A DNA stretch of 64,000 nucleotides from a virus: the IMG/VR virus record IMGVR_UViG_3300042294_003292, positions 8,327-72,326 of that record, one strand, 5' to 3'. The notes below the pieces were generated by a model. It had not been told where the DNA came from. It saw nothing but the letters and a program-made list of their open reading frames with translations, and did not search any database. The translations under genes and the position numbers were made by a program. This document shows, in pieces, positions 11,081 to 46,917 of this stretch (position 1 is its first letter; the number at the start of each line of letters is the position of its first letter).

Positions 11081-11719
11081 ATGTCAGTTCAAATATTCGA
11101 TAACTACATTTCAGGCGAACAAGCAAAAATAATAATTGATGGCTTGTCCCCTTACCTGGTAAAGAGTGATCGTATCGGGATGTCTGAAGCTCAGTACGAA
11201 GATCCGACAAAAGCTCTCTTTAATATTTATGACGGTAAGCCAATTATCGACAACGAAGAGTCGCTAGACGCTGCAACTCTTTTTACGGAAATAGTAAATG
11301 ATGTCGCAAAAGAGATCAGCAAATTTTATAATGTAGAGGCTGTGGTTGCAAGTTCGATTTTTGCAGAGGTTGCCGAAGGTGGGTTCAACGGACTTCATTG
11401 CGATAGCGTGATGCTGGATGGAACTCCGTGGGACGATAATAATGAAGCGCTGGATAATCTTGAGTTCTCGGCACTAGTATATTTGAATACTTCGGGAGTA
11501 GATTACGAAGGCGGTCAAATCGAATTTCCAAATCAAAAGATCAGGGTAACGCCAGAAGCTGGGAAGATGGTTTTCTTTCGGGGCGATATTGATCACCCAC
11601 ATGAAGTCTTCGAAGTAACCGCAGGTAAAAGATATACGCTGGTTTTGTTTTATGGCAGGGCCAGTGAAGTCAAGCAATATCAGCGATTTTTGTCGGAGCG
11701 AGATTTCGGCGGTATATAG
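11081..11719 (+). CDS. 2OG-Fe(II) oxygenase (prolyl-4-hydroxylase-like)
   Basis: HCD...YLN..YEGGQIEF...H.V..V..GKRY. Confidence 0.9.
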   Translation: MSVQIFDNYISGEQAKIIIDGLSPYLVKSDRIGMSEAQYEDPTKALFNIYDGKPIIDNEESLDAATLFTEIVNDVAKEISKFYNVEAVVASSIFAEVAEGGFNGLHCDSVMLDGTPWDDNNEALDNLEFSALVYLNTSGVDYEGGQIEFPNQKIRVTPEAGKMVFFRGDIDHPHEVFEVTAGKRYTLVLFYGRASEVKQYQRFLSERDFGGI

Positions 11720-11812
11720 AGATACCATAACCACTATACAGTAAAACCCTGTAATATGGTTACTTGCACTAAAAAGCCTGACATGCTATAATATTTAAAC
11801 AAGGTGGGTTAT

Positions 11813-12013
11813 ATGTCTGATGATGTACGATTTATAGACCTTTTCGATCCTAATCAGCCTAGGAGCGATAAAGAGCTTATCGAGTACAGGCTCAGTATCT
11901 GTAATCAATGTCCCTGGTTTAATAAGCGCCTAGTTAAGTGCAAACAATGTGGGTGCTTCATGAAACTAAAAAGTACGCTAAAACAAGCTAAATGTCCAAT
12001 AGATAGGTGGTAA
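11813..12013 (+). CDS. Cys-rich DUF6171-like protein
   Basis: RLSICNQCP...CKQCGCFM.LK....KCPIDRW. Confidence 0.7.
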   Translation: MSDDVRFIDLFDPNQPRSDKELIEYRLSICNQCPWFNKRLVKCKQCGCFMKLKSTLKQAKCPIDRW

Positions 12014-12201
12014 AAGTGACTAGAGAAGAAGTTGTACAGAAGATGGTTGAAATCGCAGAAGCGTTTAACCTACAGGCTATTCAGGGTGCTGGTCTACCAG
12101 AGACTCAGATTGAGGAAATGGTTGCACAGGTTAGGCCACAGTTGTATACAATCCAAGGCGAGATTTATGATACCCTCGTCGAAGATGGAGTTATTCAGTA
12201 A
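12007..12201 (+). CDS. hypothetical protein
   Basis: 64-aa ORF coupled to upstream gene. Confidence 0.6.
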   Translation: MVKVTREEVVQKMVEIAEAFNLQAIQGAGLPETQIEEMVAQVRPQLYTIQGEIYDTLVEDGVIQ

Positions 12202-12301
12202 TTCTTATTAAGATGGATTCTGTGGAGTCTTGCAAGGACACTTGTCATTACAGCCACATGCCATCTTGTGCTTAATAATCAACATGATATTATTATAATC
12301 T

Positions 12302-13057
12302 ATGATAGTAAAAGATCTTTCTAAGGATATTCTATATATCGAAAATGTCTTTGAACGTGCCCAGGACTTTGTCGATGCTATAGAGAGATTCGATTCAGAT
12401 ACCCAAGTTCATCCTGTTATTCCAGCTTGGAGAGATTGGTATGACGGTGTTCCGTACCAGGATGAAGATGGTGTATGGCAGGTTAACTATCATGATGCCC
12501 CCAAAGGAAAGCAAAAGCTATTTGATTGGAACATATCAGCTACTAACAATTATAGGGTGTGGCCACTTCCAGAAGATGATCTTGGAGACTATGCCCACAA
12601 GATAGCAAATCCAGTTATTCATTTAATTCACGAACCATATCTAAAGGTCCTAGATATTTGGTATGAGAAGACTGGACACAAGAAGCTAGATTATGTCTCT
12701 AAAAACTATACCCTGAAAAAATATAATACTGGTGGCTCTATAGGCACTCATATTGATAAGAATGATCAAGATCCAGGAAGCACCATGGACTATACCGTTC
12801 TTTTTTATCTAACAGATAACTATGAAGGTGGAGAGATAGAGTTTACAGAAGCAAATATAACTCTAAAGCCTGCAGCTGGAAGTGCTTTGATATTTAAAAC
12901 CACAGAGCCCCATATGGCATATGAAGTAAGAGAAGGAGATAAATACTTTATCTTCATGTATATTCACACAGAGTTTGGACATTCCACCAGTTTGTATGAA
13001 GACTTTGTTGCCCTCAATAATTCTATTTCAGAATATAGGAAAAACCTAAATTCATAA
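12302..13057 (+). CDS. 2OG-Fe(II) oxygenase
   Basis: HID...YLTDNYEGGEIEF...H...V..GDKY. Confidence 0.9.
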   Translation: MIVKDLSKDILYIENVFERAQDFVDAIERFDSDTQVHPVIPAWRDWYDGVPYQDEDGVWQVNYHDAPKGKQKLFDWNISATNNYRVWPLPEDDLGDYAHKIANPVIHLIHEPYLKVLDIWYEKTGHKKLDYVSKNYTLKKYNTGGSIGTHIDKNDQDPGSTMDYTVLFYLTDNYEGGEIEFTEANITLKPAAGSALIFKTTEPHMAYEVREGDKYFIFMYIHTEFGHSTSLYEDFVALNNSISEYRKNLNS

Positions 13058-13239
13058 AAATCTGAATATTTTTTAAATATGTACGATACACGATCACGCT
13101 AAAAAACACCAAATTACTAGAGCGCACACCACACCCCGTACGACCCATGTTATAAAAATGTTATAAGACACTACGGCGTGTCTCCCCTAAAATGTCGTAG
13201 GGTGGTGCTAATGTATAAGTAGTTAGAAAGGATAAATAA

Positions 13240-13479
13240 ATGAACATAATGGAAATTAGAAAGAACGGAATTGGTTCTAACTTTTCTGTAATCAACCCAG
13301 AGGACGGATACCGCAAGGACAACCGCCTATGGTTCGGAACTTGTAGCGAGTGTGGTGAGAGCGTCACCAACTCAAGCCTAAAGGGTTCTTGGGTTCACTC
13401 TATTCACTCTCTAACAGAATACGCCCCTGGTAAGTTTGTGAACTCTTATCGTGATTCTGAGGTGTGTCCTAACGCATAA
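13240..13479 (+). CDS. small early protein (CxxC)
   Basis: Own promoter and GAAAGGATAAATAA RBS. Confidence 0.8.
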   Translation: MNIMEIRKNGIGSNFSVINPEDGYRKDNRLWFGTCSECGESVTNSSLKGSWVHSIHSLTEYAPGKFVNSYRDSEVCPNA

Positions 13480-13523
13480 ATGTCGTAGGGTTATGCTAGT
13501 ATCTAAATAGAAAGGATAAATAA

Positions 13524-13724
13524 ATGAGATACCAAAACAAATACTACCAGCCAGTAGATAGCCTAACACGCTACGCTAAGGTAAACCTGCTAAACCTTCA
13601 GGCAGTAGAAGAACAAATAGACTTGCTAATCTCAATTAGTGATGACCCTAGTTGGGAAACTATCAAAGAGGTAGAAGGTCTAATCAAAGTAGCAAAATCA
13701 CTTGGAACTAAGAGGAGTTGGTAA
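13524..13724 (+). CDS. small early protein
   Basis: Own promoter and GAAAGGATAAATAA RBS. Confidence 0.8.
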   Translation: MRYQNKYYQPVDSLTRYAKVNLLNLQAVEEQIDLLISISDDPSWETIKEVEGLIKVAKSLGTKRSW

Positions 13725-14037
13725 TTGTGATAACCCTAACCTTTGAAACTTGGGAAGAGTTTGATAACGCTATTGGTTCTATTGTAGCTTTGGAGACTGC
13801 TATCGCTACCCCCAGCGAATAGCAAAAGTTTTCTAAAACACGGCGTGTCGTATTGACAATGTCGCCCATCTGGGCTCGGGCCCCCCAATATCTAGTAGTC
13901 CTAATTAAGTTAAGACACTAGATCTAGATCTCCCAGAATTATAACAAAATGATAACAAGTATCACGACACACCCCTAAATGTCCCCAAAATGTCGTAGGG
14001 TCGTGATAGGTTTTTAGTAGTTAGAAAGAAGGAATAA

Positions 14038-14223
14038 ATGAGTAGAAGAATGTGGCGTAAAACTGAATGTAAAGGCTGTGGCTATGTCCAAGAAACAAGC
14101 ACTAGCTACTACCTAGACCGCAAGCAGTGGGACGCAAACCACCTGCCCTATCACTACAGCGTGTTGCCCAAGAAAATGTCTGAGGGTTATGCTAAGTTAG
14201 AACTATCAACGAAAGGAAACTAA
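14038..14223 (+). CDS. small early protein (CxxC)
   Basis: Promoter at 13990; AAGGA RBS. Confidence 0.75.
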   Translation: MSRRMWRKTECKGCGYVQETSTSYYLDRKQWDANHLPYHYSVLPKKMSEGYAKLELSTKGN

Positions 14224-14227
14224 ATAA

Positions 14228-14407
14228 ATGACTGAACAGATTTGCGTATTTTGTATGAACCTAGTCAATGACTATGTTTGTTTTGAGTGTGATGACTACA
14301 AGGGTCTAATGCCACTAAAAGAGGCAGAGGCTTACTTGGGTGAGGATTTCCCAGAGGAATACCGCCAACCAATGTCTATCTATGGACAAAACCTAATCTG
14401 GCAATAA
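14228..14407 (+). CDS. small zinc-finger-like early protein (59 aa)
   Basis: Manual translation MTEQICVFC...VCFECDDYKG; GAAAGGA RBS. Confidence 0.7.
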   Translation: MTEQICVFCMNLVNDYVCFECDDYKGLMPLKEAEAYLGEDFPEEYRQPMSIYGQNLIWQ

Positions 14408-14452
14408 TGTCAGACCCCTATGCTAGATTTGTAAAAACGAAAGGATAAATAA

Positions 14453-14623
14453 ATGGCTTACAACAGAGAATCACACGAACTACTAGACTCAGCACTAGAG
14501 GTTCTAAAGACTAAGGCTCAATACCCTTATGCCAGAATGGTTGGATACCTAATGCCTAATGTGCCACTAGAAGATGCTAAGCGTATCGCAGAACTAATCC
14601 TAGAGTGGGAGGGCGACAAGTGA
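14453..14623 (+). CDS. small early protein (56 aa)
   Basis: Manual ORF with CGAAAGGATAAATAA RBS and promoter at 14407. Confidence 0.75.
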   Translation: MAYNRESHELLDSALEVLKTKAQYPYARMVGYLMPNVPLEDAKRIAELILEWEGDK

Positions 14624-14995
14624 GTCTGTCAGTAGAAGAACTAGAAACCCTAATTTTCCAAATTGACCTAATGCTCTCAGAAGATAAAATGTCTGAAGGT
14701 GTTGGTAGTCTTTTTACAACTAGAGAGGATAACTAAATGATTTTCTATAACGGATTCAATCTAATGGTTGATTTGATTTTGGTTGCTGTTGTGTATGTAA
14801 TTGCTCACGGCATTGGATACCGCAAAGCCAAAGACTTTTTTCAGCCCCCGTTCTAACGGCGTGTCGCCTTGACAAAGTGTCAGGGTGGCGGCCGAGCCCT
14901 GGATCAGATCGGGCCCCAATTTGTTTACGAATATTTTTACGACACTCCCAGAAAATCTCCCAATAAATGTCAGAGGGTAGATGTATAATAAAGCT

Positions 14996-15160
14996 ATGAA
15001 ACTAGGAAAAGCTAATGAATCAAGACGCAAGGCGGAAAGTAAAGAACTATTCCGCAACTTACTAAAAGCTCCTCACCTAGTTTCTACACCAGAAAAATAC
15101 AAGGGAAGTCGTCAGTCTAACAATACTAAGGCTATTAGAGAAAGTAAGGCAGATGAGTAA
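14996..15160 (+). CDS. small basic early protein (54 aa, leaderless)
   Basis: TATAAT 6 nt upstream of ATG; K/R-rich. Confidence 0.65.
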   Translation: MKLGKANESRRKAESKELFRNLLKAPHLVSTPEKYKGSRQSNNTKAIRESKADE

Positions 15161-15283
15161 TTATAACTGTTGGGACTGTAATAAGCTAACTAGACACTTA
15201 TTCGAATACAGAACAATAAATGTCTGTGCCTCATGTTATGCTATTAGAGTTGGACACCCCTCAGCAAGAAAGTTGGTAAAGTA

Positions 15284-15586
15284 ATGGGAAGCTTACAAGC
15301 AAGCGAATTCGCTCAAATGGATGTTGATATTGAAACTGCCTTGGCGTGGCACTTGAAGGGTAATCACTATCCACCAATTCCTAGCTCAATGATACAACCA
15401 TGTATAGAGGCTATTGACGCTTATTGGGAAGAGGACTACAACAGACTAATCCAATTGCCAATTGATGGCGTAGACCGTAATGGAGAGCCGTTCCAAATTA
15501 GATGGCGTGATGGCTCAGACAAGGCTCCCGCTTGGGCCCTAGTTGAACACGCTCACCTTGACGCTTGGCTACCTGAAATAGAATAA
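15284..15586 (+). CDS. hypothetical early protein
   Basis: 100-aa ORF after promoter 15220. Confidence 0.75.
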   Translation: MGSLQASEFAQMDVDIETALAWHLKGNHYPPIPSSMIQPCIEAIDAYWEEDYNRLIQLPIDGVDRNGEPFQIRWRDGSDKAPAWALVEHAHLDAWLPEIE

Positions 15587-15628
15587 ATGTCAGACGTAGT
15601 CTGTATAATTATCTAAGAAAGGACCCCT

Positions 15629-16348
15629 ATGCCCCTAATACGTTCAAAAGATAGAAAGGTTACAAATGCGGTATCTCCGAATGGTAAGTCGCCCACTATT
15701 GCTAACACCTTTGGGCTTCCGTCTGGTAAAGCGTTTTCCTGCCCTGGAGCAACTAGTGTATGCGAGAAAATCTGCTATGCGGGTAAACTAGAGAAAATCT
15801 ATAAAGGCGTCAAGGACGTCCTTCTAACCAATTGGGACCTGCTACGTAATGCAGACCAATTGGAAATGGAAGCGCTATTGTTCCAAATGATAGATGAGTT
15901 TGATAAAGACTGTAACAAGCGCAATGCAGAAAAGCTGTTTCGAATTCACTGGGACGGTGACTTCTTCAATGAGACTTATACTCACGCTTGGAAGAATGTA
16001 ATCCTTGCATTCCCTTCCATTCAATTCTGGGTATACACCCGTTCAGACTTTGCGGTACCTATCCTTAGCGATGTTTCTAACTTATCACTGTACTTCTCAA
16101 CTGATGATGATAACTGGCAGCTGGCTAGTGAGTTGAAGAAAGCCAATGGCGTTAAGCTTGCATACCTTGCTCAAAATTTTGCAATGGGTAAAGAGCGGAT
16201 GTTGTCTATCACGCCTAAGTCTGCAATTCCTTGCCCTGAGAATGCGAAGAAACTTCCGCTAATCAGTGACAAGGGTTCCGCCTGCGTTACTTGCGGACAG
16301 TGTGTTTTTGCACGTAATGACATTTTGTTTAGCGCTAGTAAAAAGTAA
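15629..16348 (+). CDS. GP88-like Cys-rich phage protein (possible Fe-S enzyme)
   Basis: CPGATSVCEKICYA, FRIHWDGDF, FWVYTRS, C-terminal CP...CVTCGQC. Confidence 0.75.
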   Translation: MPLIRSKDRKVTNAVSPNGKSPTIANTFGLPSGKAFSCPGATSVCEKICYAGKLEKIYKGVKDVLLTNWDLLRNADQLEMEALLFQMIDEFDKDCNKRNAEKLFRIHWDGDFFNETYTHAWKNVILAFPSIQFWVYTRSDFAVPILSDVSNLSLYFSTDDDNWQLASELKKANGVKLAYLAQNFAMGKERMLSITPKSAIPCPENAKKLPLISDKGSACVTCGQCVFARNDILFSASKK

Positions 16349-16466
16349 GGGGATGAGGTAAAATATATCATGGACACTTTCTACATTCTATTGATTTTAT
16401 TTCTCATGGCCCTGCTACTAGTTTCTAATAATAGAAAATAGAATCATGCTATAGGGGCATGTTAAC

Positions 16467-16530
16467 CTAGGGATCTTGTTATATCCTTTCTTAGGTCCCT
16501 GGCGTCCTGGCCACGACGATAAACTGGCCA
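16467..16530 (+). ncRNA. anti-RBS hairpin A followed by pseudoknot motif
   Basis: 10-bp stem; loop UGUUAUAUCCUUUCUU complementary to AGAAAGGAUA; pseudoknot at 16503-16530. Confidence 0.65.
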
Positions 16531-16638
16531 CATTTCGGCCCGAGCCGCTTTATAACAAAATGGTAACAAGTTTACGACACGTCTCAAAAATGTCCTAGGT
16601 ATGATGTATAGTAATACTACCTAAAAAGAAAGTAGAGT

Positions 16639-17202
16639 ATGGGAACTAGAGGAATCACAGAAGTAGTTTACAATGGTGAAATTGTTGTTAGCCAGTATGG
16701 TCAATGGGACCACTACCCAAGCGGTCAGGGTATCACAGCGTTCAAGTTTCTACGCAGTCAAGAAAACATTGACAACCTAAAGAAAAATCTTGCCCTAGTC
16801 TATGTTCCAAGTGATGACGAATACAAAGCTATTGTAAGCAAGTATTCTGATGAGCGTGGAATGATGACTATGGAACAGGGTGATGAGTTCAACAAGATGT
16901 ATCCAAGTCTAACCAGAGATACTGGTGCTGGTATCCTTGAGATTATTGCTAACGCAACTGAATCAGTCCCACTATTTTTGGACCTAGAGTTCAAAGATGA
17001 CAGACTATTCTGTGAAGGTGTTTATACAATCAACTTAGATGACAACACTTTCACAACTAGATACAATCGCTACGAAAATGACAATGATGAAGATGTTTAT
17101 ACTTTATCTTTTGAGCAGATTCTTTACACGGGTGAAGATGACTATCTTGAAAGAGCAAAGTGTGGAGTCTATCAGTATCAAAAGTCTGAGGCTTTAGCCT
17201 AA
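16639..17202 (+). CDS. hypothetical early protein
   Basis: MGTRG...QYGQWDHYPSGQG; GAAAGTAG RBS. Confidence 0.8.
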   Translation: MGTRGITEVVYNGEIVVSQYGQWDHYPSGQGITAFKFLRSQENIDNLKKNLALVYVPSDDEYKAIVSKYSDERGMMTMEQGDEFNKMYPSLTRDTGAGILEIIANATESVPLFLDLEFKDDRLFCEGVYTINLDDNTFTTRYNRYENDNDEDVYTLSFEQILYTGEDDYLERAKCGVYQYQKSEALA

Positions 17203-17218
17203 CAAGATACCCTGCCAG

Positions 17219-17270
17219 CTTGACAAACTGGCGGGGATCTGCTCGGCCCCAAAACTAGGCGTTTGTCAAG
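17219..17270. repeat. 52-bp dyad-symmetric site
   Basis: CTTGACAAAC...GTTTGTCAAG perfect 10-bp arms centred on the CG of GCTCGGCC. Confidence 0.7.
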
Positions 17271-17423
17271 TTTACGATTATAACAATTTTTCCCCTGAAT
17301 TGTTATAAATAACTTGGGCGTGGCTCTTGATAATGTCGGAGGTATGCCCTATAATTTAGGAGTAGCAAAAACGACTACTAAATAGAAAAATCCTAGTGGA
17401 AAGACTAGGTGAAAGGAAGCAAA

Positions 17424-17579
17424 ATGGCAAATGTAATTGCCCCCGTTGTTGGCTCACAATACACTACTCAGAAATCAGGCGTTTCTGGGATTGTTCAGGA
17501 AGTTGTCGCAAACAAGACTGGAACTTTCCGTGTCCGTCTTGATGTAAATGGGCAGCCTCGCTGGACTACTATCAAGTAA
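17424..17579 (+). CDS. small beta-rich early protein (51 aa)
   Basis: Manual translation MANVIAPVVGSQYTTQKSGVSG...RWTTIK; GAAAGGA RBS. Confidence 0.7.
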   Translation: MANVIAPVVGSQYTTQKSGVSGIVQEVVANKTGTFRVRLDVNGQPRWTTIK

Positions 17580-17590
17580 TAAATTAGTTT

Positions 17591-17627
17591 GAGGGGGTAG
17601 AGTTATTTATCCTTTCGCTACCCCCTC
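17591..17627 (+). ncRNA. anti-RBS hairpin B
   Basis: Perfect 10-bp stem; loop contains the exact reverse complement of (C)GAAAGGATAAATAA. Confidence 0.75.
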
Positions 17628-17687
17628 TCCTAAAATGTCTGACCCTGCCCCTATAATGTAATTACCCCAAATAGAAAGTAGAAACAA

Positions 17688-18134
17688 ATGGCTAGAACCC
17701 TGTCCGTAAAAGTTCCAACAAGCAAACTAATCGCAGACATTGAGCAGTCTATCGCTAAGATTGACGCAGACATTGAGGCGTATTCTGGATTGCGTAAGAA
17801 GTATGAAGCAGACATCAAGCAGTATGAGAAAGACCTTATTGCTTATGCTGTAAAGGCACTACAAGACCCAAACAATGTTGGCACAGACCACAACTCTCTA
17901 ATTCGTGTATCAACCAACAACTACCGCAACTCTGTATCTGTTGATTTTGATACTGAGGGTCTTGGTTTCCCAAAGAAGCCAGAAGAGCCAGCAAGACCAA
18001 ATGAGAAGACCTACTTTGGTAGGGACTACACCACACGCAAGGAAATCCTAGAGAAGAACCTGCGTATTCTAAAGATGACCTCTCAAGAGGAAGTATCAGC
18101 AAGTTCTTACTCTGCTGTGATTGACCTAATCTAA
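17688..18134 (+). CDS. hypothetical early protein (coiled coil)
   Basis: 148 aa; own promoter; GAAAGTAG RBS. Confidence 0.8.
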   Translation: MARTLSVKVPTSKLIADIEQSIAKIDADIEAYSGLRKKYEADIKQYEKDLIAYAVKALQDPNNVGTDHNSLIRVSTNNYRNSVSVDFDTEGLGFPKKPEEPARPNEKTYFGRDYTTRKEILEKNLRILKMTSQEEVSASSYSAVIDLI

Positions 18135-18143
18135 TTAGGGAAA

Positions 18144-18170
18144 CGACCTGAGCAAGTCGCTAAACTGCTC
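18144..18170 (+). ncRNA. 3'-UTR H-type pseudoknot motif
   Basis: CGAC-CT-GAGCA-A-GTCG-CTAAAC-TGCTC, 9 nt after the stop codon. Confidence 0.7.
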
Positions 18171-18374
18171 TCCCCTTGGCACAAATACTGCGTGATCTGA
18201 TCACCCAAAGCTGAAGCCAGGGGGATCTTCCCGTTTTTGGCTCGGGCCGCCGTTACCAAATTGTTATTTTAAGAAGTCTAATTATTTTGCCCCAGATTCT
18301 TGACAATGTCAGAGGGTGGCTGTAAAATAGTCTCAACAAACAAATAACTAATAACCCTAATAGAAAGTAGAAAA

Positions 18375-19376
18375 ATGGCACATTTGCTAGAACAGTCCGC
18401 AACAGGCGAAACCGCTTTTGCTTCTTTTCGTGAGCCAGCTTGGCACCAGCTAGGCACAGTTTTCAATGAGGAAGTCTCAACTAACAAGATGTTGAAACTC
18501 GCACACCTTGACAACTGGAATGTTCGCTTGGAAGATGTAGCAATTCCAAATGGTTTTGAGAGTGACAAGAATTATTTCTTCGTGACTAGAACTAACCCAT
18601 TCAACAAGCAACAGAATGATGTTCTTGGCGTTGTTGGTGAAAGATACAATGTTCTTCAGAATGAAGACTTGTTTGATTTTGGTGATGCCCTGCTGGACGG
18701 CGGTCGCTGGGAGACTGCTGGTTCTATCAAGAACGGCAGACAGGTTTTCGGTTCTCTTGCTCTTGAGCGTGAAACAGTTCTTGACCCTAACGGCGTTTCA
18801 GATGTTGTGAAGTCTTATTTGCTAATCAACACTAGCCACGACGGCTCAGTTGCTATTCAGGCTTCTATCACACCTGTTCGTGTTGTATGTGCTAACACTC
18901 TAAACCTTGCTCTTGGTAAAGGCAACAGAGGTGTCAAGCAGTCTTTCAAGATTCGCCACACCCAAACCGCTTCAGGCAAAGTTGCTCAGGCTCGTGAGGC
19001 TCTTGGTCTTGCTAATAAGTATCTTGATGAGTTTGACAAGCTTGCTCAGTCTATGATTGAAAAAGAATTGACTAAGGCTCAGTTTGACAAGATTGTTGAG
19101 CTGGCTTACCCAAAGCCAGACAAAGATACCAAAGGTGCTGTCAAGAAGTGGGAAAACAAAACAGACATTCTTCAGAGTATCTATGTTGGTTCAACTAACG
19201 GAATGATTGCTGGAACTGCTTGGGGTGCTTTCAATGCTCTAACTGAGAGACTAGACTGGTATCGCACTGCTAGAGGTGGCTCTAACGAATCTATTCTAGC
19301 AGCTGCTTCTGGTTTTGACCCTGTGACTACCGCAGAAAAAAACAGACTGCTTCAGTTGGTCTTGGCTAACAGCTAA
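18375..19376 (+). CDS. DUF932 / TIGR03299-like phage-plasmid protein
   Basis: PAWHQLG, VVGERYNVLQN, ETAGSIKNGR, SHDGS, RVVCANTL, GTAWGAFNALTE. Confidence 0.9.
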   Translation: MAHLLEQSATGETAFASFREPAWHQLGTVFNEEVSTNKMLKLAHLDNWNVRLEDVAIPNGFESDKNYFFVTRTNPFNKQQNDVLGVVGERYNVLQNEDLFDFGDALLDGGRWETAGSIKNGRQVFGSLALERETVLDPNGVSDVVKSYLLINTSHDGSVAIQASITPVRVVCANTLNLALGKGNRGVKQSFKIRHTQTASGKVAQAREALGLANKYLDEFDKLAQSMIEKELTKAQFDKIVELAYPKPDKDTKGAVKKWENKTDILQSIYVGSTNGMIAGTAWGAFNALTERLDWYRTARGGSNESILAAASGFDPVTTAEKNRLLQLVLANS

Positions 19377-19382
19377 CCAAAA

Positions 19383-19408
19383 GTCCTGGGCATGACCAAA
19401 AACTGCCC
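19383..19408 (+). ncRNA. 3'-UTR H-type pseudoknot motif
   Basis: GTC-CT-GGGCA-T-GAC-CAAAAAC-TGCCC, 6 nt after the stop codon. Confidence 0.7.
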
Positions 19409-19569
19409 TCCATTCACACTTGACAAGATCGCAATTTTCGGGCCGAGCGCCTAAAGTAAAATTAGTTAATAAAAAATACCAATTACGAAGTGGTAAATAA
19501 TTTCCCAGAAATCTTGATAATGTCAGAGGCAACCACTATAATGTAACTACCCTAAAAGAAAGTAGACAA

Positions 19570-19755
19570 ATGCCCAAATACTATGTAAAGATGCGTATTG
19601 ACTTTGCTGGAGAAATTGAAGCAGAATCTAAAGAGGCAGCAGAAGACCTAGCTTGGACTAGCTGGGGTGATTCAATGGACAATGAAATAACCTATGATGG
19701 TGTTTATGACATTGACGTTGAGGAAATTGAGGATGACGAGGAAGACGAGGAATAA
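19570..19755 (+). CDS. small acidic early protein
   Basis: 61 aa, D/E-rich; GAAAGTAG RBS. Confidence 0.75.
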   Translation: MPKYYVKMRIDFAGEIEAESKEAAEDLAWTSWGDSMDNEITYDGVYDIDVEEIEDDEEDEE

Positions 19756-19785
19756 ATGTCCTACCCTAGTGTTATAGTGGATACT

Positions 19786-20151
19786 ATGAATGCCCCTGTT
19801 GAATGCCCCAATCACAATGGTTCTTTTGACTGTAATCCTTTTTGTCGTTTGTGTGAGGGAAACCAGGAAACAACTCTAGACGAAATGCTATACCAAGCAG
19901 ATTCAGTATCGTTTGATGGTTGTCACAAAATCTATCTAAACATGGACGCCAAGCAGACTGAGAAGATGGTTGGCTATGGTTATGACAAGACTATTAGTGA
20001 TACACCTGCTGCCATGAAAGACCTAGTCTTTTCTTGGTATGAAGATTCTTGTAGTCTCAGATTCATTGACGCTGTATTTACTGATGACGACGAGACTGAC
20101 AAGTTTATTACTGTTATTGGACAATTCTTTGGAGAGGACGAAGACGAATGA
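19786..20151 (+). CDS. hypothetical early protein (Cys cluster)
   Basis: CPNHNGSFDCNPFCRLC; start moved to ATG 7 nt after the -10 box. Confidence 0.7.
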   Translation: MNAPVECPNHNGSFDCNPFCRLCEGNQETTLDEMLYQADSVSFDGCHKIYLNMDAKQTEKMVGYGYDKTISDTPAAMKDLVFSWYEDSCSLRFIDAVFTDDDETDKFITVIGQFFGEDEDE

Positions 20152-21134
20152 AAGAGTGGACTCAGTTCATAAACAAGACTGACAAGAATGAGTTTGAGAC
20201 TTTGCTAGCAGACATAATGTCAGAGGCTCTTGCTAAAATAGACTCTATCCCTGATGAAGAATTAGAAAGGCTAGTTGACTGTGAGTAGTCCTATGAAAAA
20301 GTATGTAGTTACTTATACCGCTGAGTATGTGGTAGAAGCTCTTGACGAAGAAGAAGCTATTGACCAAGCGATAGAGATACACTTTGAATTACCTGACGGA
20401 AGCTGGGAGGCAACTCTTGAAAACTAATGAAGAAATCATTGAGTATCTTACTAAAGACATTCAAGAGCTAATGCCTGAGAGAGAGTCTCTTGACATCAAC
20501 GATTCCTATGGCGACTACCTTGATGGCATCATTGGTAGAAGCCAGTCTGTCCTAAGAATGATGGGTGTTCCAGAAGTTCTTATCCCGCAGAATGGAGACT
20601 GCTAATGTATAGCAAGATTTGGACTGTTGAGAAAGATGGAGAACACGTTCCGATTGTCTTTGTTACAAAGAAAGACGCTGTGGAGTGGATAGCAGAAAAA
20701 GAGAATCCAGATAAGTACACATACTACAAGGAGACAGATAAGTAATGGCTGTATCAGAGATGGAACAGATTGGCTATGAGCAGGGTATGGTTGATACCCT
20801 TGCTTATGTAGAAAGAACAATAACAAAAGCTATGGACAATCCTGCGATGGACATCTTGACACCACGACAGGTACTGGGTATACTATTGGCATCTATCAGA
20901 ATACAAGAAGAGGACGAATAAATGGCTTGGGTAACTAACGATGGTGAATACAATGGCTCTTCCCTTGTGTTGGAGTTTGACTTCAATGCCCTCAACGAAC
21001 AGCAGTGGTCTAACCTAGAGGACATGTCTTCTATGGACAGGCTTGACTATGTTGAGGCTATCCTTGCTGGAGATGACGACAAAGTTCGTCACATTGAGCT
21101 TGATAACTTTACAGAGGAGTGGGGTCTGGAGTAA
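20148..21134 (+). other. run of about 6 tightly coupled small acidic ORFs (incl. 20417-20605, 20922-21134)
   Basis: Overlapping stop/start codons and RBSs on the + strand. Confidence 0.65.
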
Positions 21135-21276
21135 TCCAGGCCTTACGGCCTCGGGCCATCTTAATATAAACTGTTTAACCCCAAAAAACCTTTACGATCC
21201 TTTGAAAAATTTTCCCAGATCTATTGACAATGTCGTAGGGTTAGTGTATAGTAATAGCTAGTAGGAAGGAAACCCA

Positions 21277-21672
21277 ATGAGACAATCTGTCATGGTAAAT
21301 AAAATTGATACTGATAAGCTAACCAAGCTGTTGTATTGGAAGGCTGTTGAGGTTGGATCTGATTCAAGACCTGAAGGTGAATCAATGGTTGTTGTCAATA
21401 CCCCAAAAGGTTTAGCTACCGTATGCCATGAAGGCGTTGGATGGTGGAAGAATGACGACAACAAGTACCTTGTAGGTGGCTACATTGGATACAGCAACCC
21501 TACGTACTACATCACAGAAGATGAATTACTATCCTGTTTGTCAGATGAGATGGTAGATCTAGCAAGTTTTATAAATACCTTTGGGGATAGGCTAGAGAAC
21601 AACTACAGCTTATGGTACCACCAGGTAAAGGACACCCCACAAAATGTCAGTGGGTTGGCGTATAATCATTAA
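21277..21672 (+). CDS. hypothetical early protein
   Basis: 131 aa after TTGACA-ATGTC promoter. Confidence 0.75.
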   Translation: MRQSVMVNKIDTDKLTKLLYWKAVEVGSDSRPEGESMVVVNTPKGLATVCHEGVGWWKNDDNKYLVGGYIGYSNPTYYITEDELLSCLSDEMVDLASFINTFGDRLENNYSLWYHQVKDTPQNVSGLAYNH

Positions 21673-22026
21673 GAAAGGAAAGTAGATGCCCCTCTATAAA
21701 ATACAACGAGAGTACACCAACTGGGAAGAGATTACAGTTGAGGCTGATTCAGAAGACCAGGCACTGGAGCTGGCTGAGGATGAAGATACATGGGAGTATG
21801 CATATGATGTTAACTCATATAATTACACAGGCGAGACATGGATTGAGGAACAGTAATGGCAAAGCACGTACACTACTATAGCTATGGCGCTTGCACCTGG
21901 TGTGGCAAGAAGGTCAACAAAGGCCTTGGCGTGGATCTATACCGTGGAAAAAAAGTTTAAGAACCCTCTTGACAAAACCCCAGAAATTTGAGACAATAGT
22001 TTTACCCTAGAGAAAGTATAACCCCA

Positions 22027-22551
22027 ATGCACGTAATACAATACATTGCAACAAAAGCAGATGACACCAGCCATGCATTCAACTCTGTCAAAAACTATCT
22101 TGAGGAACAGCTAGGTAGCGGAGACAACTACAACACTTGGTATGACTGGTTCATAACAGGCGGAGGACGTTGGGCCTCTGGAGAAGACAATCAGTATAAC
22201 GATAACTATCAGGGTGATGTAGTTCATCAGTCTGACCCTAAGTTTGAGGAATACCTAGATACCGCTCACAAATACAGGCAGCAGGAGCTATCAGAGTATG
22301 AGGCTCAGGCACGTAAGATAAATCTAACAGAACTATTAGACAGCCTTCAAGACTTTGAGTTTGACCACTTCAAGGCTGGTATGGAGCTATACCCTATTAA
22401 GAAGCTGTATGACCTATGCATGGGTGTATGGGACTATCAGTCTTACTTCTTTGACATTGATAACGATAGCACCAGCAGAAAATATATGCGTGAAAGTATT
22501 GACAAAGGAGCAGATAGCTGGTATCTTGTTCCTGTGGACTTCCATTTTTAG
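22027..22551 (+). CDS. hypothetical phage protein
   Basis: WYDWFITGGGRW motif; ends LVPVDFHF. Confidence 0.8.
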   Translation: MHVIQYIATKADDTSHAFNSVKNYLEEQLGSGDNYNTWYDWFITGGGRWASGEDNQYNDNYQGDVVHQSDPKFEEYLDTAHKYRQQELSEYEAQARKINLTELLDSLQDFEFDHFKAGMELYPIKKLYDLCMGVWDYQSYFFDIDNDSTSRKYMRESIDKGADSWYLVPVDFHF

Positions 22552-22563
22552 AAAGTAGGAGCA

Positions 22564-22980
22564 ATGGAAATGACAAAAGTAGAACCGCAGTACACAGAGT
22601 ATCAGGGCTGGAATGAGTGGGCTGATAAGTACAAGCCAATCAAAAACCATCTTGTTTCTGACCCAGACCAGCAGATGTTTGAGACCTATGGCGAAGAGCT
22701 GGAGTATGTTCAGTCTGTTGAGCCTAACCGTATCTGGACCTACCTACAGGGAGACATGTCTGACCTTATTTGCGCAGGCTATCACTTTGTAAACAGGATT
22801 GGTTACTACATCACTGAGGTACCTTGGACCAACGAAGATGACTATGTCCTTCTATCAGTAGAAGAAGAGTGTAAGTGTTACAGCGAAGACGAAGATGTCA
22901 TGGCAACCCGCAACGATGAGTATGGGGACCCAAGCTGTGTAGAGTGCGAAGGGTATGGATATGTCACAAACTATGTATAG
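22564..22980 (+). CDS. hypothetical protein with C-terminal zinc-finger
   Basis: GYHFVNRIGYYITE; CKC...CVECEG; GAAAGTAGGA RBS. Confidence 0.8.
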   Translation: MEMTKVEPQYTEYQGWNEWADKYKPIKNHLVSDPDQQMFETYGEELEYVQSVEPNRIWTYLQGDMSDLICAGYHFVNRIGYYITEVPWTNEDDYVLLSVEEECKCYSEDEDVMATRNDEYGDPSCVECEGYGYVTNYV

Positions 22981-23323
22981 AAACAAGAACAGAAACAAGA
23001 CTCTTATTGACTATGACCTTAACATCTACATGCCTGAAGAGTACGACGACATATCAGATGAGTACTACTTTGACCCAAGTAACTGGAAGATTCATGTCTA
23101 CATTGTTAACGACCGTGGCCACGAGGAATGGGATGAGCCGTTGCATCTGACAGCTGAAGAGATTAGGCACCTAGGCCTAAACAGGGAATCGTACTTCAAA
23201 GACGAACAAGACGTCTGGTACGGCCTGGAGGGATTTAGGTTAGACTATTGGGATAGGATGTCCGATAGGCTGAAGGAATATTTCGATCGCCTGCCTAAGT
23301 ACGTAGAGGACGTAGGTCCATAA
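22973..23323 (+). CDS. hypothetical acidic protein
   Basis: ORF overlapping the upstream stop. Confidence 0.7.
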   Translation: MYRNKNRNKTLIDYDLNIYMPEEYDDISDEYYFDPSNWKIHVYIVNDRGHEEWDEPLHLTAEEIRHLGLNRESYFKDEQDVWYGLEGFRLDYWDRMSDRLKEYFDRLPKYVEDVGP

Positions 23324-23335
23324 TTAAATAAGGAT

Positions 23336-23441
23336 TGATGCGTTGAGCTGAGCTCCGCATCATGTGAGATACGACAGTTAGGGGTAGCTAGCGTATCTCA
23401 AGGGGTGTCAAGACTTTTCCTACTTTCAGTCTTGACACCCC
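23336..23441 (+). ncRNA. three-hairpin RNA ending in anti-RBS hairpin C
   Basis: Stems of 7, 9 and 14 bp; last loop UUUCCUACUUUC is antisense to GAAAGUAGGAAA. Confidence 0.65.
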
Positions 23442-23487
23442 CACCAATTTGTGGGATAATACACATAGGAGAATAACCAGATTGAGA

Positions 23488-23676
23488 ATGAGTGATGAGG
23501 AAAAGGTCGCAGTAAAAATCACTGGACTTCTCTCTGACCATAGGCTAAACTTAGATAGGGTTGGCTTGTATGTGGCAAGAGAAGAACCAAGTAGCAATTA
23601 CAGACGACTGATGATTGTGGCGGAAGCCGCTGATGAAGAATGGGAGAGTAGGTATGGCAGACACGACAGAGTATAG
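23488..23676 (+). CDS. hypothetical protein
   Basis: After TTGACA-N17-GATAAT promoter. Confidence 0.65.
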   Translation: MSDEEKVAVKITGLLSDHRLNLDRVGLYVAREEPSSNYRRLMIVAEAADEEWESRYGRHDRV

Positions 23677-23935
23677 AACACAGATAGAAGTCCTAGCAGA
23701 ACTTTGGATGGACTATCGTGATGACGAAGCATTTGCCGAATTGTTTGAGTATGCTGATTTGGGCTTTCCCCTTTCCTATGCTCTGGACAACGGAGTTGTG
23801 GATTCAACTGTTCACGCAGAGAAACTTATCGAAAGCACATTTGATTTGCTACTCAAACTTCTTGCCGTTGAGGACACAGGGTTTGAGAGCCTGAACGATT
23901 TGCTTGACACAGCTGAGCAGAAGAATCAAAAGTAA
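23654..23935 (+). CDS. hypothetical protein, paralog of 29433-29708
   Basis: EVLAELWMDYR...DLGFPLSY...VEDTGFESL. Confidence 0.75.
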   Translation: MADTTEYRTQIEVLAELWMDYRDDEAFAELFEYADLGFPLSYALDNGVVDSTVHAEKLIESTFDLLLKLLAVEDTGFESLNDLLDTAEQKNQK

Positions 23936-24190
23936 TCTAGTCTAACTTCCTGATCCTGGTTATCAGGGGGGTAGGCCCGAGTACCTTTATCAAAATGTTA
24001 TAAAACCACTATTGACAAACCTTATTACGATGGTATATAATATTTCCCTGAAATTTGATCGATGCCTATCCAAACCTCAAACCTTATTTAAATAAACATA
24101 TTACGATCAGATCAAAAAAATCGCTGAAATATTTGGCTATAAGGGTTTGGGTATTTTTAGAAGTCTTACCAAACATGATATACTTTATAC

Positions 24191-24385
24191 ATGAGTCCAA
24201 GAAACTATCTAAGAGTCTTTCATCCAGAAGAAGCCAGGAAGATTGATCAGGGATATTCTGATGCTGGTATTATAGTCGTTAATGTATTTACTAGAGCTAT
24301 AAGGTTTATGTTTCCTTTCTTTGTGCCTCGGGCTGAAGAGTCTATCAAGACTGATAATGATAATGCCGAAGGCATCAAAGAATAA
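24191..24385 (+). CDS. hypothetical protein
   Basis: TGATATACT 6 nt upstream of ATG. Confidence 0.55.
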   Translation: MSPRNYLRVFHPEEARKIDQGYSDAGIIVVNVFTRAIRFMFPFFVPRAEESIKTDNDNAEGIKE

Positions 24386-24939
24386 CCCCCTTCCCCCCTA
24401 TATAAATAACATTACGAAGAACAATTATTTTTCCCTGAAATATAAAACCTTTTAAATCTTTTTGGCCAGATTTCATTTAAAATGGTTTAGTTTTTTATAT
24501 TTTTATGGCCATATTTTGTATAAAAAATGCTTGACATTTGACGGATATTATGATATAGGGGTTTGGGGGTATAGGGGTTTGGGGTTTGAAATGATTACGA
24601 GTTTAAGTTAATATGTGCTCCATTCTCCACTATCCTCCATATCACTCCACTTTAACTCTATTAAACTTAATAAACAGTAAGATCTTTTAGTCTAAAACCA
24701 TGTCCAAAACATACTCTAAATAGCCCTAGAATGGATTCTGACGGGGTATTCAAACCTTCGTAAGACGGATATGGGGTTATCTTCGATTACGTCTTTTCTT
24801 GGTTTCATCTAGCTCAAATAGCACCAAAACCACAGCTGCCAATAGGAAAGATCCCACCAAAGAACATACTAACAAATACGTATTATCCATACGTATAAGT
24901 ATAACTTATTATGTATTTATATAGGGGGTGGAGGTTTGC

Positions 24940-44763: not shown

Positions 44764-46917
44764 TTAGAACAAGTCGGAATTCATCAGCTTTGTCCAAACT
44801 TTAGAAAAGTCTTTCTTTAGCTTTTCTAGTCCATCGCTTGAGGCGTATACTTCGCAGTAAGCCCTTAGTACAGAGTTTGAAGCAAATACCATATCTGATC
44901 TTGTAGCGGTCCACTTAAGGTCCCTTGTCTTACGGTCGAAGCCGTTGTATAGGCTATCCTCAGATGCCTTCCACTCAGTATTCATATCTAGGACATTAAT
45001 AAAGAAGTCGTTAGACAGAGTTCCTGGATTGTCTGTTAGGACGCCCCTACCGTTAGACGGGATTCCCAAAGATCGTAGTCCTCCATAAAGAGCTGTCATC
45101 TCTGGAGGAGTAAGACCTAGCAAGGTTGCCTTTTCAATTAATGACTTGTCTAATGAATCAGCAAACTCTTTATGAGACCAGTTAACGAATGCATCTGCAA
45201 CTGGATATAGATAGTTGAATGACTCTATATCTGTCAGCTCCTGCGTGGCGTCTCCACGACCACCAGTAAATACAACACGAGTATCAGAGGCCTTTTCTAG
45301 TGCATATGTTCCAGCTAAAACAATCAGGTCTGCCAATGACATCTGGTTTCCCATTTCATTACGAACCTCTTGAACCGCATCTAGAGTTGCAAGAACAGAA
45401 GAGTTTACTGGCCATGATCGTTGAGGCAAGAATGCAATCCTTGCACCATTTGCACCGCCCCTCTTGTCAGTGTTTCTGTAAGTAGAGGCGGAGGCATAGG
45501 CAAGCCTAATTAAGTCCACATTGCTAACGTCTAGGCCATCGATAAGCTTTTTTGCTTTTTCAATGGCGGTCTCGTCTGGGACTGGTGCACTCTGCACAGG
45601 ATCTTGCCACAGAAGAACTTCTGCTGGGACCTCTGAGCCGTGGTACCTGGATCTTGGTCCCATATCTCTGTGGGTTAGCTTAAACCATGCACGTGCAAAT
45701 GCATCTGTAAAGTACTCAAAGTCTTCCAAGAACTTTCTACAAATCTTGTCATACTCCTCGTCACCAAACCTTAGCGCAAGGTCAGTAGTAAGCATTCTTG
45801 GAACAACCTTTACATCTTCAAGGTGTGCATGAGGAGCTGCATCTTGTGCCTCAAAGTTAGATGGAACCCACTGCTTAGCTCCTGCTGGAGATTCTTCTGG
45901 TACCCAATCATACTTATAGATTAGCCTTAGATAGTCGTTATCCCACTGAGTAGGATTTGGCGTCCAGGTAACCTCTAGACCAGAAGAGATGGTGTCTTCT
46001 GAGTGTCCCTTGCCCTGGGAGTTTTTCCAGCCTAATCCAACTGCAGCAAGATCGTCAACAGCTTCTGGCTCTGGTCCAACCTGCGAGGCAGGTCCCGCTC
46101 CATGAGTCTTTCCAAATGCGTGTCCTCCAGCAATAAGAGCTACAGTTTCTTCATCATTCATAGCCATTCGTCCGAATGTCTCACGAATATCTGCAGCAGC
46201 CAGCTTAAAGTCTGGATTGCCATCTGGTCCTTCTGGATTTACATAAATCAGCCCCATCTGCACTGCAGCAAGAGGATCCTCTAGTGTGCTTGCTTCTCTT
46301 GACTCGTCATACCGCTTGCTTGCTAGCCACTCAGTCTCGTCACCCCAATAGGTGTTGTCTGGCTCCCAGACATCTTCACGACCTCCTGCAAATCCAAAGG
46401 TAGGGAAGCCCATGTCTTCAAGAGCAACGTTCCCTGCTAGAATCATTAGATCAGCCCAGCTGAGTTTGCGACCGTACTTCTGCTTGACTGGCCACAAAAG
46501 TCTACGGGCCTTATCTAGGTTAATGTTGTCTGGCCAGGAGTTTAGTGGGGCAAAGCGATGTAGTCCCTGTCCGCCACCTCCACGGCCATCTGAAACACGA
46601 TATGTTCCAGCAGAGTGCCAAGCCATTCTAATGAACAGTGGGCCATAGTGTCCGTAGTCTGCAGGCCACCACTCTTGCGATGTCCTCATGACTTGAACAA
46701 TATCCTTCTTTACATCTGCCAAGTCTAGTGTCTTAAACTCTTCAACATAGTTAAAGTCATCATCCATAGGATTGCTCTTAGGATTATTGTGAAGCAGTGG
46801 CTCTAATGAAATTTGATTAGGCCACCAGTCTTTATTTGTTGTGCCTCTTGAACTTGAAGCTTTTGTTTTTGATCCATGCTGACCGTGGTCAACTGGACAC
46901 TCATTAATATCTGCCAT
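44764..46917 (-). CDS. katG: catalase-peroxidase
   Basis: [51 protein letters not shown]. Confidence 0.98.

Follow-up and report, generated by a model that had tools for sequence, protein, structure and literature searches.

Hairpins with loops antisense to two classes of early ribosome-binding sites in the genome of an uncultured actinophage-like virus

Two classes of ribosome-binding sites and three hairpins in an early gene block

Hairpins whose loops are complementary to the ribosome-binding sites (RBSs) of early genes of the same genome occur in the 72,326-bp viral record IMGVR_UViG_3300042294_003292 (IMG/VR), of which bases 8327-72326, a stretch of 64,000 nucleotides (nt) hereafter called the window, were analysed. 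From about 11,081 to 24,400 the window is densely packed with small genes on the + strand, bordered on both sides by blocks of minus-strand genes. Nearly each unit of this + block is preceded by a promoter-like site, built either as an extended -10 or as TTGACA-17-TATAAT, with an ATGTC box ahead. The three hairpins, designated A, B and C, are all located at the ends of gene units with promoters directly behind them, the distance from stop codon to hairpin being 3-120 nt, and no good promoter-like site was found directly upstream of them in the promoter scan. The coordinates of the hairpins, of the RBSs and of the accompanying elements are collected in Table 1.

Two RBS motifs recur ahead of the genes of this block. 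The class-1 motif GAAAGGATAAATAA occurs three times in the forward orientation (13226, 13510 and 14439), each time immediately preceding an ATG, and once as its reverse complement (17603-17616), which is held by loop B; read backwards, the same pattern has no match in the whole 72,326-bp record. The class-2 motif GAAAGTAG occurs six times in the forward orientation (16628, 17674, 18363, 19558, 21678 and 22551), each time 3-10 nt ahead of a start codon, and its reverse complement is found at 23420, 38651 and 61252, with a hairpin context only at 23420. The positions given for both motifs and for the hairpins in an earlier note on this DNA, made from the letters alone, are correct. The note had also distributed the two classes between the first early genes and the later ones; the motifs are real, but the zoning is not clean, GAAAGGA-type sites being additionally located at 14211, 15617, 17411 and 21673 (before the genes starting at 14228, 15629, 17424 and 21686), and class-1 and class-2 sites overlapping in space. 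GAAAG-type sites stand before 16 of the 32 called genes of the + block vs 8 of the 86 minus-strand genes, among which AGGAG-type starts (18 of 86) or leaderless starts predominate. Since the minus-strand genes mostly use starts of these two kinds, the loops would be expected to spare them.

As the earlier note had claimed, the loops are antisense to the RBS classes by exact complement, A and B to class 1 and C to class 2, over 14-15 nt for loop B and 8-10 nt for loops A and C. Hairpin A displays TATCCTTTCTT, a 10-nt match to both AGAAAGGATA and TAAGAAAGGA; the latter belongs to the 5' untranslated region (5'UTR) of the gp88-family gene, in the 3' region of which hairpin A itself resides. Its folding alone is weak (z = -1.9 vs shuffles), and the hairpin is conserved in relatives. 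Hairpin B begins 11 nt past the stop codon of a conserved gene of 51 amino acids (aa; 17424-17579), with the next promoter immediately after; a minus-strand open reading frame using loop B as its RBS was considered and rejected, no start codon being found behind it. The 3' arm of hairpin C contains the -35 box TTGACA (23432-23437) of the next promoter, the -10 box of which, GATAAT, ends at 23460.

Predicted duplex energies agree with the claim that the loops can tell the two classes apart, cognate duplexes reaching -9.5 to -18.6 kcal/mol vs about -4.5 to -5 kcal/mol for cross-class duplexes. Loop B is predicted to pair with class-1 RBSs at -17.1 to -18.6 kcal/mol vs about -10 kcal/mol with the 3' end of 16S rRNA, which we take to be ..CCUCCUUUCU; the corresponding values for loop C are -9.5 to -14.5 kcal/mol with class-2 RBSs vs -6.4 to -9.3 kcal/mol with the same presumed tail.

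Table 1. Location of the RBSs, hairpins and accompanying elements in the window.
Feature	Position	Strand	Description
Class-1 RBS GAAAGGATAAATAA	13226..13239	+	Abuts the ATG of gene 13240-13479 (79 aa); predicted duplex with loop B -17.1 kcal/mol
Class-1 RBS, same 14-mer	13510..13523	+	Precedes gene 13524-13724 (66 aa)
Class-1 RBS	14438..14452	+	15-nt exact complement of loop B plus closing base; -18.6 kcal/mol (predicted)
Gene behind the RBS at 14438..14452	14453-14623	+	56 aa
5'UTR and start of gp88-family gene 15629-16348	15614..15631	+	TAAGAAAGGA, CCCCT and ATG, in this order
Small hairpin tipped TAGGGG	16445..16461	+	Immediately 5' of hairpin A; in relatives, motif also found ahead of hairpins of types A and C
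Hairpin A	16469..16500	+	8-bp stem; 16-nt loop TGTTATATCCTTTCTT, antisense to class-1 RBSs over 10 nt
Pseudoknot-like element CGTC-CTGGCCA-CGACG..AAAC-TGGCCAC	16503..16531	+	After hairpin A; recurs behind other genes, stems covary
Class-2 RBS GAAAGTAG	16628..16635	+	Gene 16639-17202
Hairpin B	17591..17627	+	10-bp G+C-rich stem; 17-nt loop AGTTATTTATCCTTTCG; -20.5 kcal/mol, z = -3.8
Class-2 RBS	17674..17681	+	Gene 17688-18134
Class-2 RBS	18363..18370	+	DUF932 gene 18375-19376
Class-2 RBS	19558..19565	+	Gene 19570-19755
Mixed RBS TAAGAAAGGAAAGTAG, both motifs	21670..21685	+	Gene 21686-21856
Class-2 RBS GAAAGTAGGA	22551..22560	+	Gene 22564-22980; best match of loop C, 10 nt, -14.5 kcal/mol (predicted)
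Two hairpins 5' of hairpin C	23336..23400	+	Second (23365-23400) with inner stem and invariant GGGG cap within TTAGGGGTA
Hairpin C	23402..23441	+	14-bp stem; 12-nt loop TTTCCTACTTTC, antisense to class-2 RBSs; -25 kcal/mol, z = -5.6
Box GGCCCGAG or CTCGGGCC	13868-13880, 14886-14896, 16536-16548, 17240-17250, 18240-18252, 19441-19452, 21146-21158, 23974-23982

Conservation of the hairpins and of their loops in related genomes

With the DUF932 protein as query, 445 related viral contigs were found, from which 80 loci (72-98% identity) were used; together with the window part (+/-10 kb around DUF932) they form a comparison set of 81 sequences. Hairpins were scanned for with a stem of at least 8 bp containing at most one G.T pair, a loop of 6-24 nt and a stem G+C content of at least 50%. 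Among the 621 hairpins with stems of at least 8 bp, the anti-RBS motifs CCTTTC or ACTTTC occur in 59 loops and the sense motifs in 3; for stems of at least 10 bp (114 hairpins) the numbers are 41 and 0. At least one anti-RBS hairpin is present in 40 of the 81 sequences.

Depending on their position, the hairpins of the relatives belong to three types. Type A occurs behind the gp88 gene, between a small TAGGGG-tipped hairpin and a pseudoknot-like CCTGGCCA..AAACTGGCCA element. Type B is located 6-11 nt past the stop codon of a highly conserved gene of 48-54 aa, with the next promoter directly behind, and is present, by our reading, in 14 of the 61 loci possessing this gene. Type C lies 3-5 kb beyond DUF932, has ahead of it a hairpin whose GGGG tip is invariant, and often bears in its 3' arm the -35 box of the next promoter.

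In type B, 6 of the 12 stem pairs have changed on both sides and 90.8% of the cells are paired, none of 500 shuffles being as good, and the loop positions TTATCCTTTC hardly vary or do not vary at all. The two-hairpin module of type C similarly contains 9 compensatory pairs out of 17. With respect to the strand, 30 of the 47 distinct hairpins read on the + strand contain G.T pairs, whereas a mirror scan allowing A.C pairs yields only 26 hairpins, 11 of them using A.C. Taken together, stem covariation, invariant loops and the G.T bias indicate that the hairpins are a selected + strand RNA structure with a selected loop.

The gene preceding type B encodes a protein of 48-54 aa (..RVRLDVNGQPRWTTVK) with the conserved RBS GGAAGCAAA, which is present in 61 of the 81 sequences and ranks among the most conserved products of the early block. 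No Pfam or PHROG family was matched by this protein, nor any PDB entry at E <= 0.001; its AlphaFold model is an SH3/Tudor-like barrel (predicted local distance difference test score 81.9). A role as a CsrA- or Hfq-like RNA binder was considered and set aside, no basis being found for a link to the hairpins. Another gene-end element, made of a CCTG-stem followed by an AAAC-TG-stem, occurs in the window at 16503-16531, 18148-18178, 19389-19416 and 17210-17236 and in many loci (e.g., L010, L018 and L030). Its arms covary (TGGCCA/TGGCCA, TGAGCA/TGCTCA, TGGGCA/TGCCCA, TGGGTA/TACCCA) and it has the potential to form a pseudoknot. Behind the small gene of many relatives, including the three loci just named, it stands in place of the type B anti-RBS hairpin.

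The earlier note had suggested loop/RBS covariation in relatives as a check, and within a genome the loop variants do track those of the RBSs (GGA/GGT/GTA and GGAT/GGAA). In statistics which, like the own-genome, next-position, position-C, upstream/downstream and gp88-swap comparisons that follow, ignore relatedness among genomes, the class-level counts per genome of GAAAGTA-type RBSs average 4.2 with a matching loop vs 0.9 without (Mann-Whitney U test, p = 1.5e-4), those of GAAAGGA RBSs 4.4 vs 2.7 (p = 0.001), and those of GAAAGGT RBSs 2.6 vs 1.3 (p = 0.07). At the next position, genomes with GGAT loops have 45 RBSs with T and 32 with A, those with GGAA loops 9 and 34, respectively. Among 17 genomes with a hairpin at position C, the 13 with class-2 loops possess 1-7 GT-type RBSs in block 2, the block before the hairpin, and the four with class-1-type (GG) loops possess 0, 1, 0 and 0. 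The loci L058 and L061 combine ACCTTTC loops with GAAAGGT sites.

The longest exact match of a loop, averaged over 33 distinct loops, is 10.06 nt in the 5'UTR set of the own genome vs 8.94 nt in those of other genomes, a difference reached in none of 20,000 resamplings. The anti-Shine-Dalgarno (anti-SD) loops (23 distinct) match their own 5'UTRs over 9.96 nt as reverse complement, compared to 7.52 nt as complement without reversal and 7.42 nt after shuffling; 62 distinct loops of other hairpins match over 6.15 nt on average. Because unreversed and shuffled loops give shorter matches, base composition does not explain the correspondence. The extent of the match depends on the lineage: the type A loop of L009 reaches 5' of the SD (TTAGTTAGAAAGGATA, 15-16 nt), and loop B of the window reaches 3' of it.

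Targets, proposed action and rival explanations

Around class-1 hairpins, RBSs matched over at least 9 nt are located upstream in 117 cases and downstream in 18, vs 364 and 249 for all GAAAG-type RBSs (odds ratio for matched sites 6.1). The matched RBSs lie at a median of about 3.1-3.7 kb upstream (3.7 kb for class 1), only 12 of the 135 class-1 sites being within 1.5 kb. For class 2 the split is 25 upstream and 0 downstream, but only 12 of 250 sites are downstream at all, and the comparison is uninformative. The statement of the earlier note that each hairpin lies downstream of the genes it matches is supported in this way for class 1.

Base pairing between loops and RBSs is well supported by these sequence comparisons, and the loops probably pair with early RBSs to control early protein synthesis. 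The more complete reading, according to which A, B and C are conserved + strand RNA structures at the ends of early units, with loops antisense to the genome's own early RBSs and lowering the translation of class-matched genes, appears to us evenly balanced between right and wrong. Loops A and B would be aimed at the GAAAGGAUAA class and loop C at the GAAAGUAGGA class, within the short 5'UTR and SD of the phage's own early mRNAs. As hairpin-bearing transcripts or stable 3' fragments derived from them build up, the loops would pair with class-matched RBSs and out-compete the 3' tail of 16S rRNA, so that translation of the class-matched genes would fall; the loop-RBS duplexes would perhaps also be exposed to double-strand-specific RNases. 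The canonical AGGAG-type sites of other gene blocks would remain unaffected. Because most targets are located kilobases upstream, with several promoters in between, the action is proposed to occur mainly in trans, and hairpin A may also pair in cis, with the 5' leader of its gp88 mRNA.

An exclusive action in cis, in which a 3'UTR hairpin would pair with the 5'UTR and SD of the same mRNA and thereby restrain its own operon at the level of translation or of stability, as described for icaR (PMC3868564), is the strongest of the rival explanations, although we consider it unlikely. The complementarity of loop A to the gp88 leader speaks in its favour: across the 11 genomes in which a hairpin follows gp88 (one of the hairpins being doubtful and two pairings weak), pairing of type A with its own gp88 leader is predicted at -14.5 kcal/mol on average vs -11.3 kcal/mol for swapped pairs (permutation p = 3.5e-4), and the gp88 sequence 5' of the SD (TTAGTTAGA vs CTAAGA) changes along with the 3' part of the loop. 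The site best matched by loop C (10 nt, at 22551) also belongs to the operon ending at hairpin C. Other observations are at variance with such pairing. Type B loops are unlike the RBS GGAAGCAAA of the gene directly upstream, and cis pairing was rejected for this type; type C loops are predicted to pair hardly better with the leading gene's 5'UTR in the upstream operon of their own genome than with swapped ones (own -9.96 vs swapped -9.73 kcal/mol, p = 0.36, 15 genomes), i.e., without own-genome preference; two gp88 pairs are weak (L015, -9.1 kcal/mol; L051, -6.4 kcal/mol); the perfect 15-16-nt matches of L009 fall on other genes; and the distances of matched class-1 RBSs given above are large. 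Our reading is that types B and C would act in trans, and type A in cis and/or in trans.

The small hairpins preceding A (16445-16461) and C (23365-23400) share an invariant (T)TAGGGG(T) tip, and CCCC or ACCCTAA adjoins the SD in several leaders (gp88: GGACCCCTATG; gene 22027: ACCCTAG..AACCCCAATG). By eye, pairing of a GGGG loop with CCCC suits gp88 (SD then CCCCTATG) and gene 22027 (SD then AACCCCAATG), in both of which the order of the boxes is compatible with two adjacent loops. In L006 the GGGG hairpin is kept and the gp88 leader has no CCCC; in class-2 leaders the ACCCTAA box stands on the wrong side of the SD for two-part recognition. A two-part recognition by GGGG hairpin and anti-RBS loop is a possible arrangement on this evidence.

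A bolder proposal, which we regard as rather doubtful, is that of a two-tier timer made of RNA only, in which two private SD variants would tag the early waves and the loop of each wave-end hairpin would silence its own wave in trans. Early-gene shut-off in phages is classically attributed to proteins, e.g., repressors, RegA/RegB-type factors or sigma switching. If the timer existed, the early genes would be shut off one class after the other, no dedicated repressor protein being needed, with the auxiliary GGGG-loop hairpin and the pseudoknot as parts of a design common to a large clade of uncultured actinobacterial phages. More generally, conserved anti-RBS elements displayed in loops would add a class-wide layer of RNA control, with two specificities per genome that change with the RBS variants, and would show that phages assign private Shine-Dalgarno 'addresses' to gene classes, here in actinobacteria-type phages, whose hosts are not known to possess Hfq. 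The elements are short and modular.

Ordinary terminators or 3'-end stabilisers, whose pyrimidine-rich loops would have no pairing role and would be complementary to purine-rich RBSs as a mere by-product, represent a somewhat less probable explanation than pairing in cis. The position at unit ends before promoters and the G+C-rich stems agree with it, as does a relative, L022, in which the type B stem carries an unrelated 6-nt loop; moreover, actinobacterial terminators often have no U tract. Of the traits of intrinsic terminators, the G+C-rich stem-loop is present, and the short loop and the U tract are absent: the loops measure 12-17 nt, and none of the three stems continues into a run of T (the next bases being GGCGTCC, TCCTAAAA and CACCAATT). 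None of the three hairpins was listed by a terminator scan limited to loops of 3-8 nt. The loop sequence is conserved above that of the stem, it matches the 5'UTRs better as reverse complement than unreversed or shuffled, and its variants track the RBS variants, all of which argues against a by-product.

The loops could also be decoys mimicking the 16S tail, binding either SD sites of host mRNAs (host shut-off) or a factor recognising the tail. Despite the UCCUUUC which the loops have in common with the presumed 16S 3' end, this explanation appears very improbable. The loops are not simple 16S mimics because the CCUCC core is absent (CCTCC in 0 of 33 distinct loops); their consensus has ..TTAT ahead of CCTTTC, the complement of the phage GGATAA and not of GGAGG; class-2 loops have an A, fitting the U of GAAAGUAG, where the presumed tail has a C; and only 3 of 62 AGGAG-type leaders of minus-strand genes are predicted to pair with loop B at -10 kcal/mol or better. 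An element acting as DNA, either an inverted operator-like copy recognised by a DNA-binding protein or a scar left by recombination where modules meet, would fit the conservation of the class-1 leader TAGTTAGAAAGGATA well past an SD and the mosaic of small gene cassettes in the region, but is just as improbable given that the loop motif occurs in a single orientation (41 vs 0), always inside a covarying inverted repeat, with G.T pairs favouring the + strand.

Several observations weigh against the proposed repression of class-matched genes by the loops. By the scan criteria, 41 of the 81 sequences have no such hairpin; since about half of the relatives do without and the loop of L022 is unrelated, the anti-RBS hairpins would be accessory or dispensable. 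The matched loop/RBS variants perhaps trace to three or four independent lineages only. A search for RNA sequencing runs containing the region 13600-23599 listed none. In the early block of a cultured distant relative, Streptomyces phage Evy, none of 6 hairpins matches a 5'UTR by at least 7 nt. The closest relative, L005 (98% identity in DUF932), keeps loop B of the window and its RBSs match this loop over just 9-11 nt, so that the perfect match of 14-15 nt is not itself conserved. The common loop CGTTTCTTATCCTTTCT matches over 11 nt, and its 5' part has no match nearby. The partial use of the hairpin C stem as a -35 box could account for some of its conservation. Finally, the geometry of RNA suggests that a loop of 12-17 nt is unable to form a full helix of 14-15 bp unless the stem opens.

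Known antisense systems and genomic surroundings

At gathering scores, an Rfam cmscan covering the window returned only 5 tRNAs and no C4 or 6C family, and an E-value scan of 13000-24500 gave a single, chance snoRNA-like match; in a literature search, with supplements outside it, no description of such hairpins in actinophages was found. The statement of the earlier note that it knew of no such system described in phages is too strong in view of the c4 RNA of P1 and P7. This RNA recognises its target in two parts and derives from the same operon. Its complementary sequences, which are probably displayed in loops, are reported to bind to the surroundings of the RBS in a phage mRNA and to block translation (PMC12197685). 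Here too, loops encoded by a phage are complementary to RBS regions of phage mRNAs. In c4 a single target, the ant operon, is controlled in lysogenic immunity, whereas three hairpins here face two early RBS classes, probably in a lytic block; unlike c4, these hairpins are located downstream of their targets and have no Rfam C4 match.

In icaR of Staphylococcus aureus, an anti-SD motif of the 3'UTR is reported to pair with the SD region, which prevents initiation and generates a substrate for RNase III (PMC3868564). Hairpin A behind gp88 fits this layout. In icaR only one bacterial gene is concerned, the motif being UCCCCUG, whereas the elements described here are displayed in loops, repeated and specific for an RBS class, with best matches mostly several kb away. 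RNAIII and RsaE of S. aureus are other antisense small RNAs (sRNAs), with anti-SD seeds in their loops. The 6C sRNA of Actinobacteria is reported to bind several mRNA targets directly by its hairpin loops, with no chaperone (PMC6486639). These three sRNAs have C-rich loops, G-rich sites in host genes and stand-alone genes, in contrast to the U/C-rich loops found here (UAUCCUUUC and CCUACUUUC), which are complementary over 10-16 nt, phage-borne and located at mRNA ends. Neither of these two loops is C-rich in the sense of CCCC or UCCC, and the adjoining hairpins have GGGG, not CCCC. With no Rfam match and loops that are not C-rich, none of c4, icaR and 6C is a homologue. In this actinophage-like lineage, two RBS classes and two loop classes coexist within one genome.

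By family assignment, the window encodes a DnaE-type polymerase, a class Ib ribonucleotide reductase, an M23/LysM lysin, a gp88-family protein and the DUF932 protein. DnaE and DUF932 are ~55% identical to proteins of large Streptomyces phages (tblastn), and a megablast of 13000-24000 against a phage collection gave no match, i.e., no close DNA relative there. The G+C content of 41.5%, together with the actinophage-type genes, suggests that the host is probably a low-G+C actinobacterium, perhaps one of freshwater. A gene on the minus strand (44764-46917), adjoined by tRNA genes, encodes a 717-aa catalase-peroxidase-like protein (Pfam peroxidase, E = 1.5e-66).

Leaderless mRNAs are common in actinobacteria. 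Some minus-strand genes of the window (starts at, e.g., 9198, 10403, 34564 and 36092) have their start 6-8 nt past a TATAAT and no SD (gctataataatcctATG, ggtataataatagtattATG), which suggests that their mRNAs are leaderless. In the intergenic regions of the + strand between 13180 and 23460, about 15-18 promoter-like sites carry an (A)AATGTC box ~12 nt before an extended -10 or TATAAT, often with no -35 box. A short box rich in G+C, either GGCCCGAG or the complementary CTCGGGCC, with variants, also recurs in most intergenic regions of the + block; it comes after the gene-end hairpin and ahead of the next promoter, and is often followed by TTATAACAA or TTTACGA. The + block is closed by an A+T-rich non-coding stretch (24400-24900) with GGGGTTTGGGG-like repeat units and an AT-rich inverted repeat at 24490-24528, which may be an origin or packaging region.

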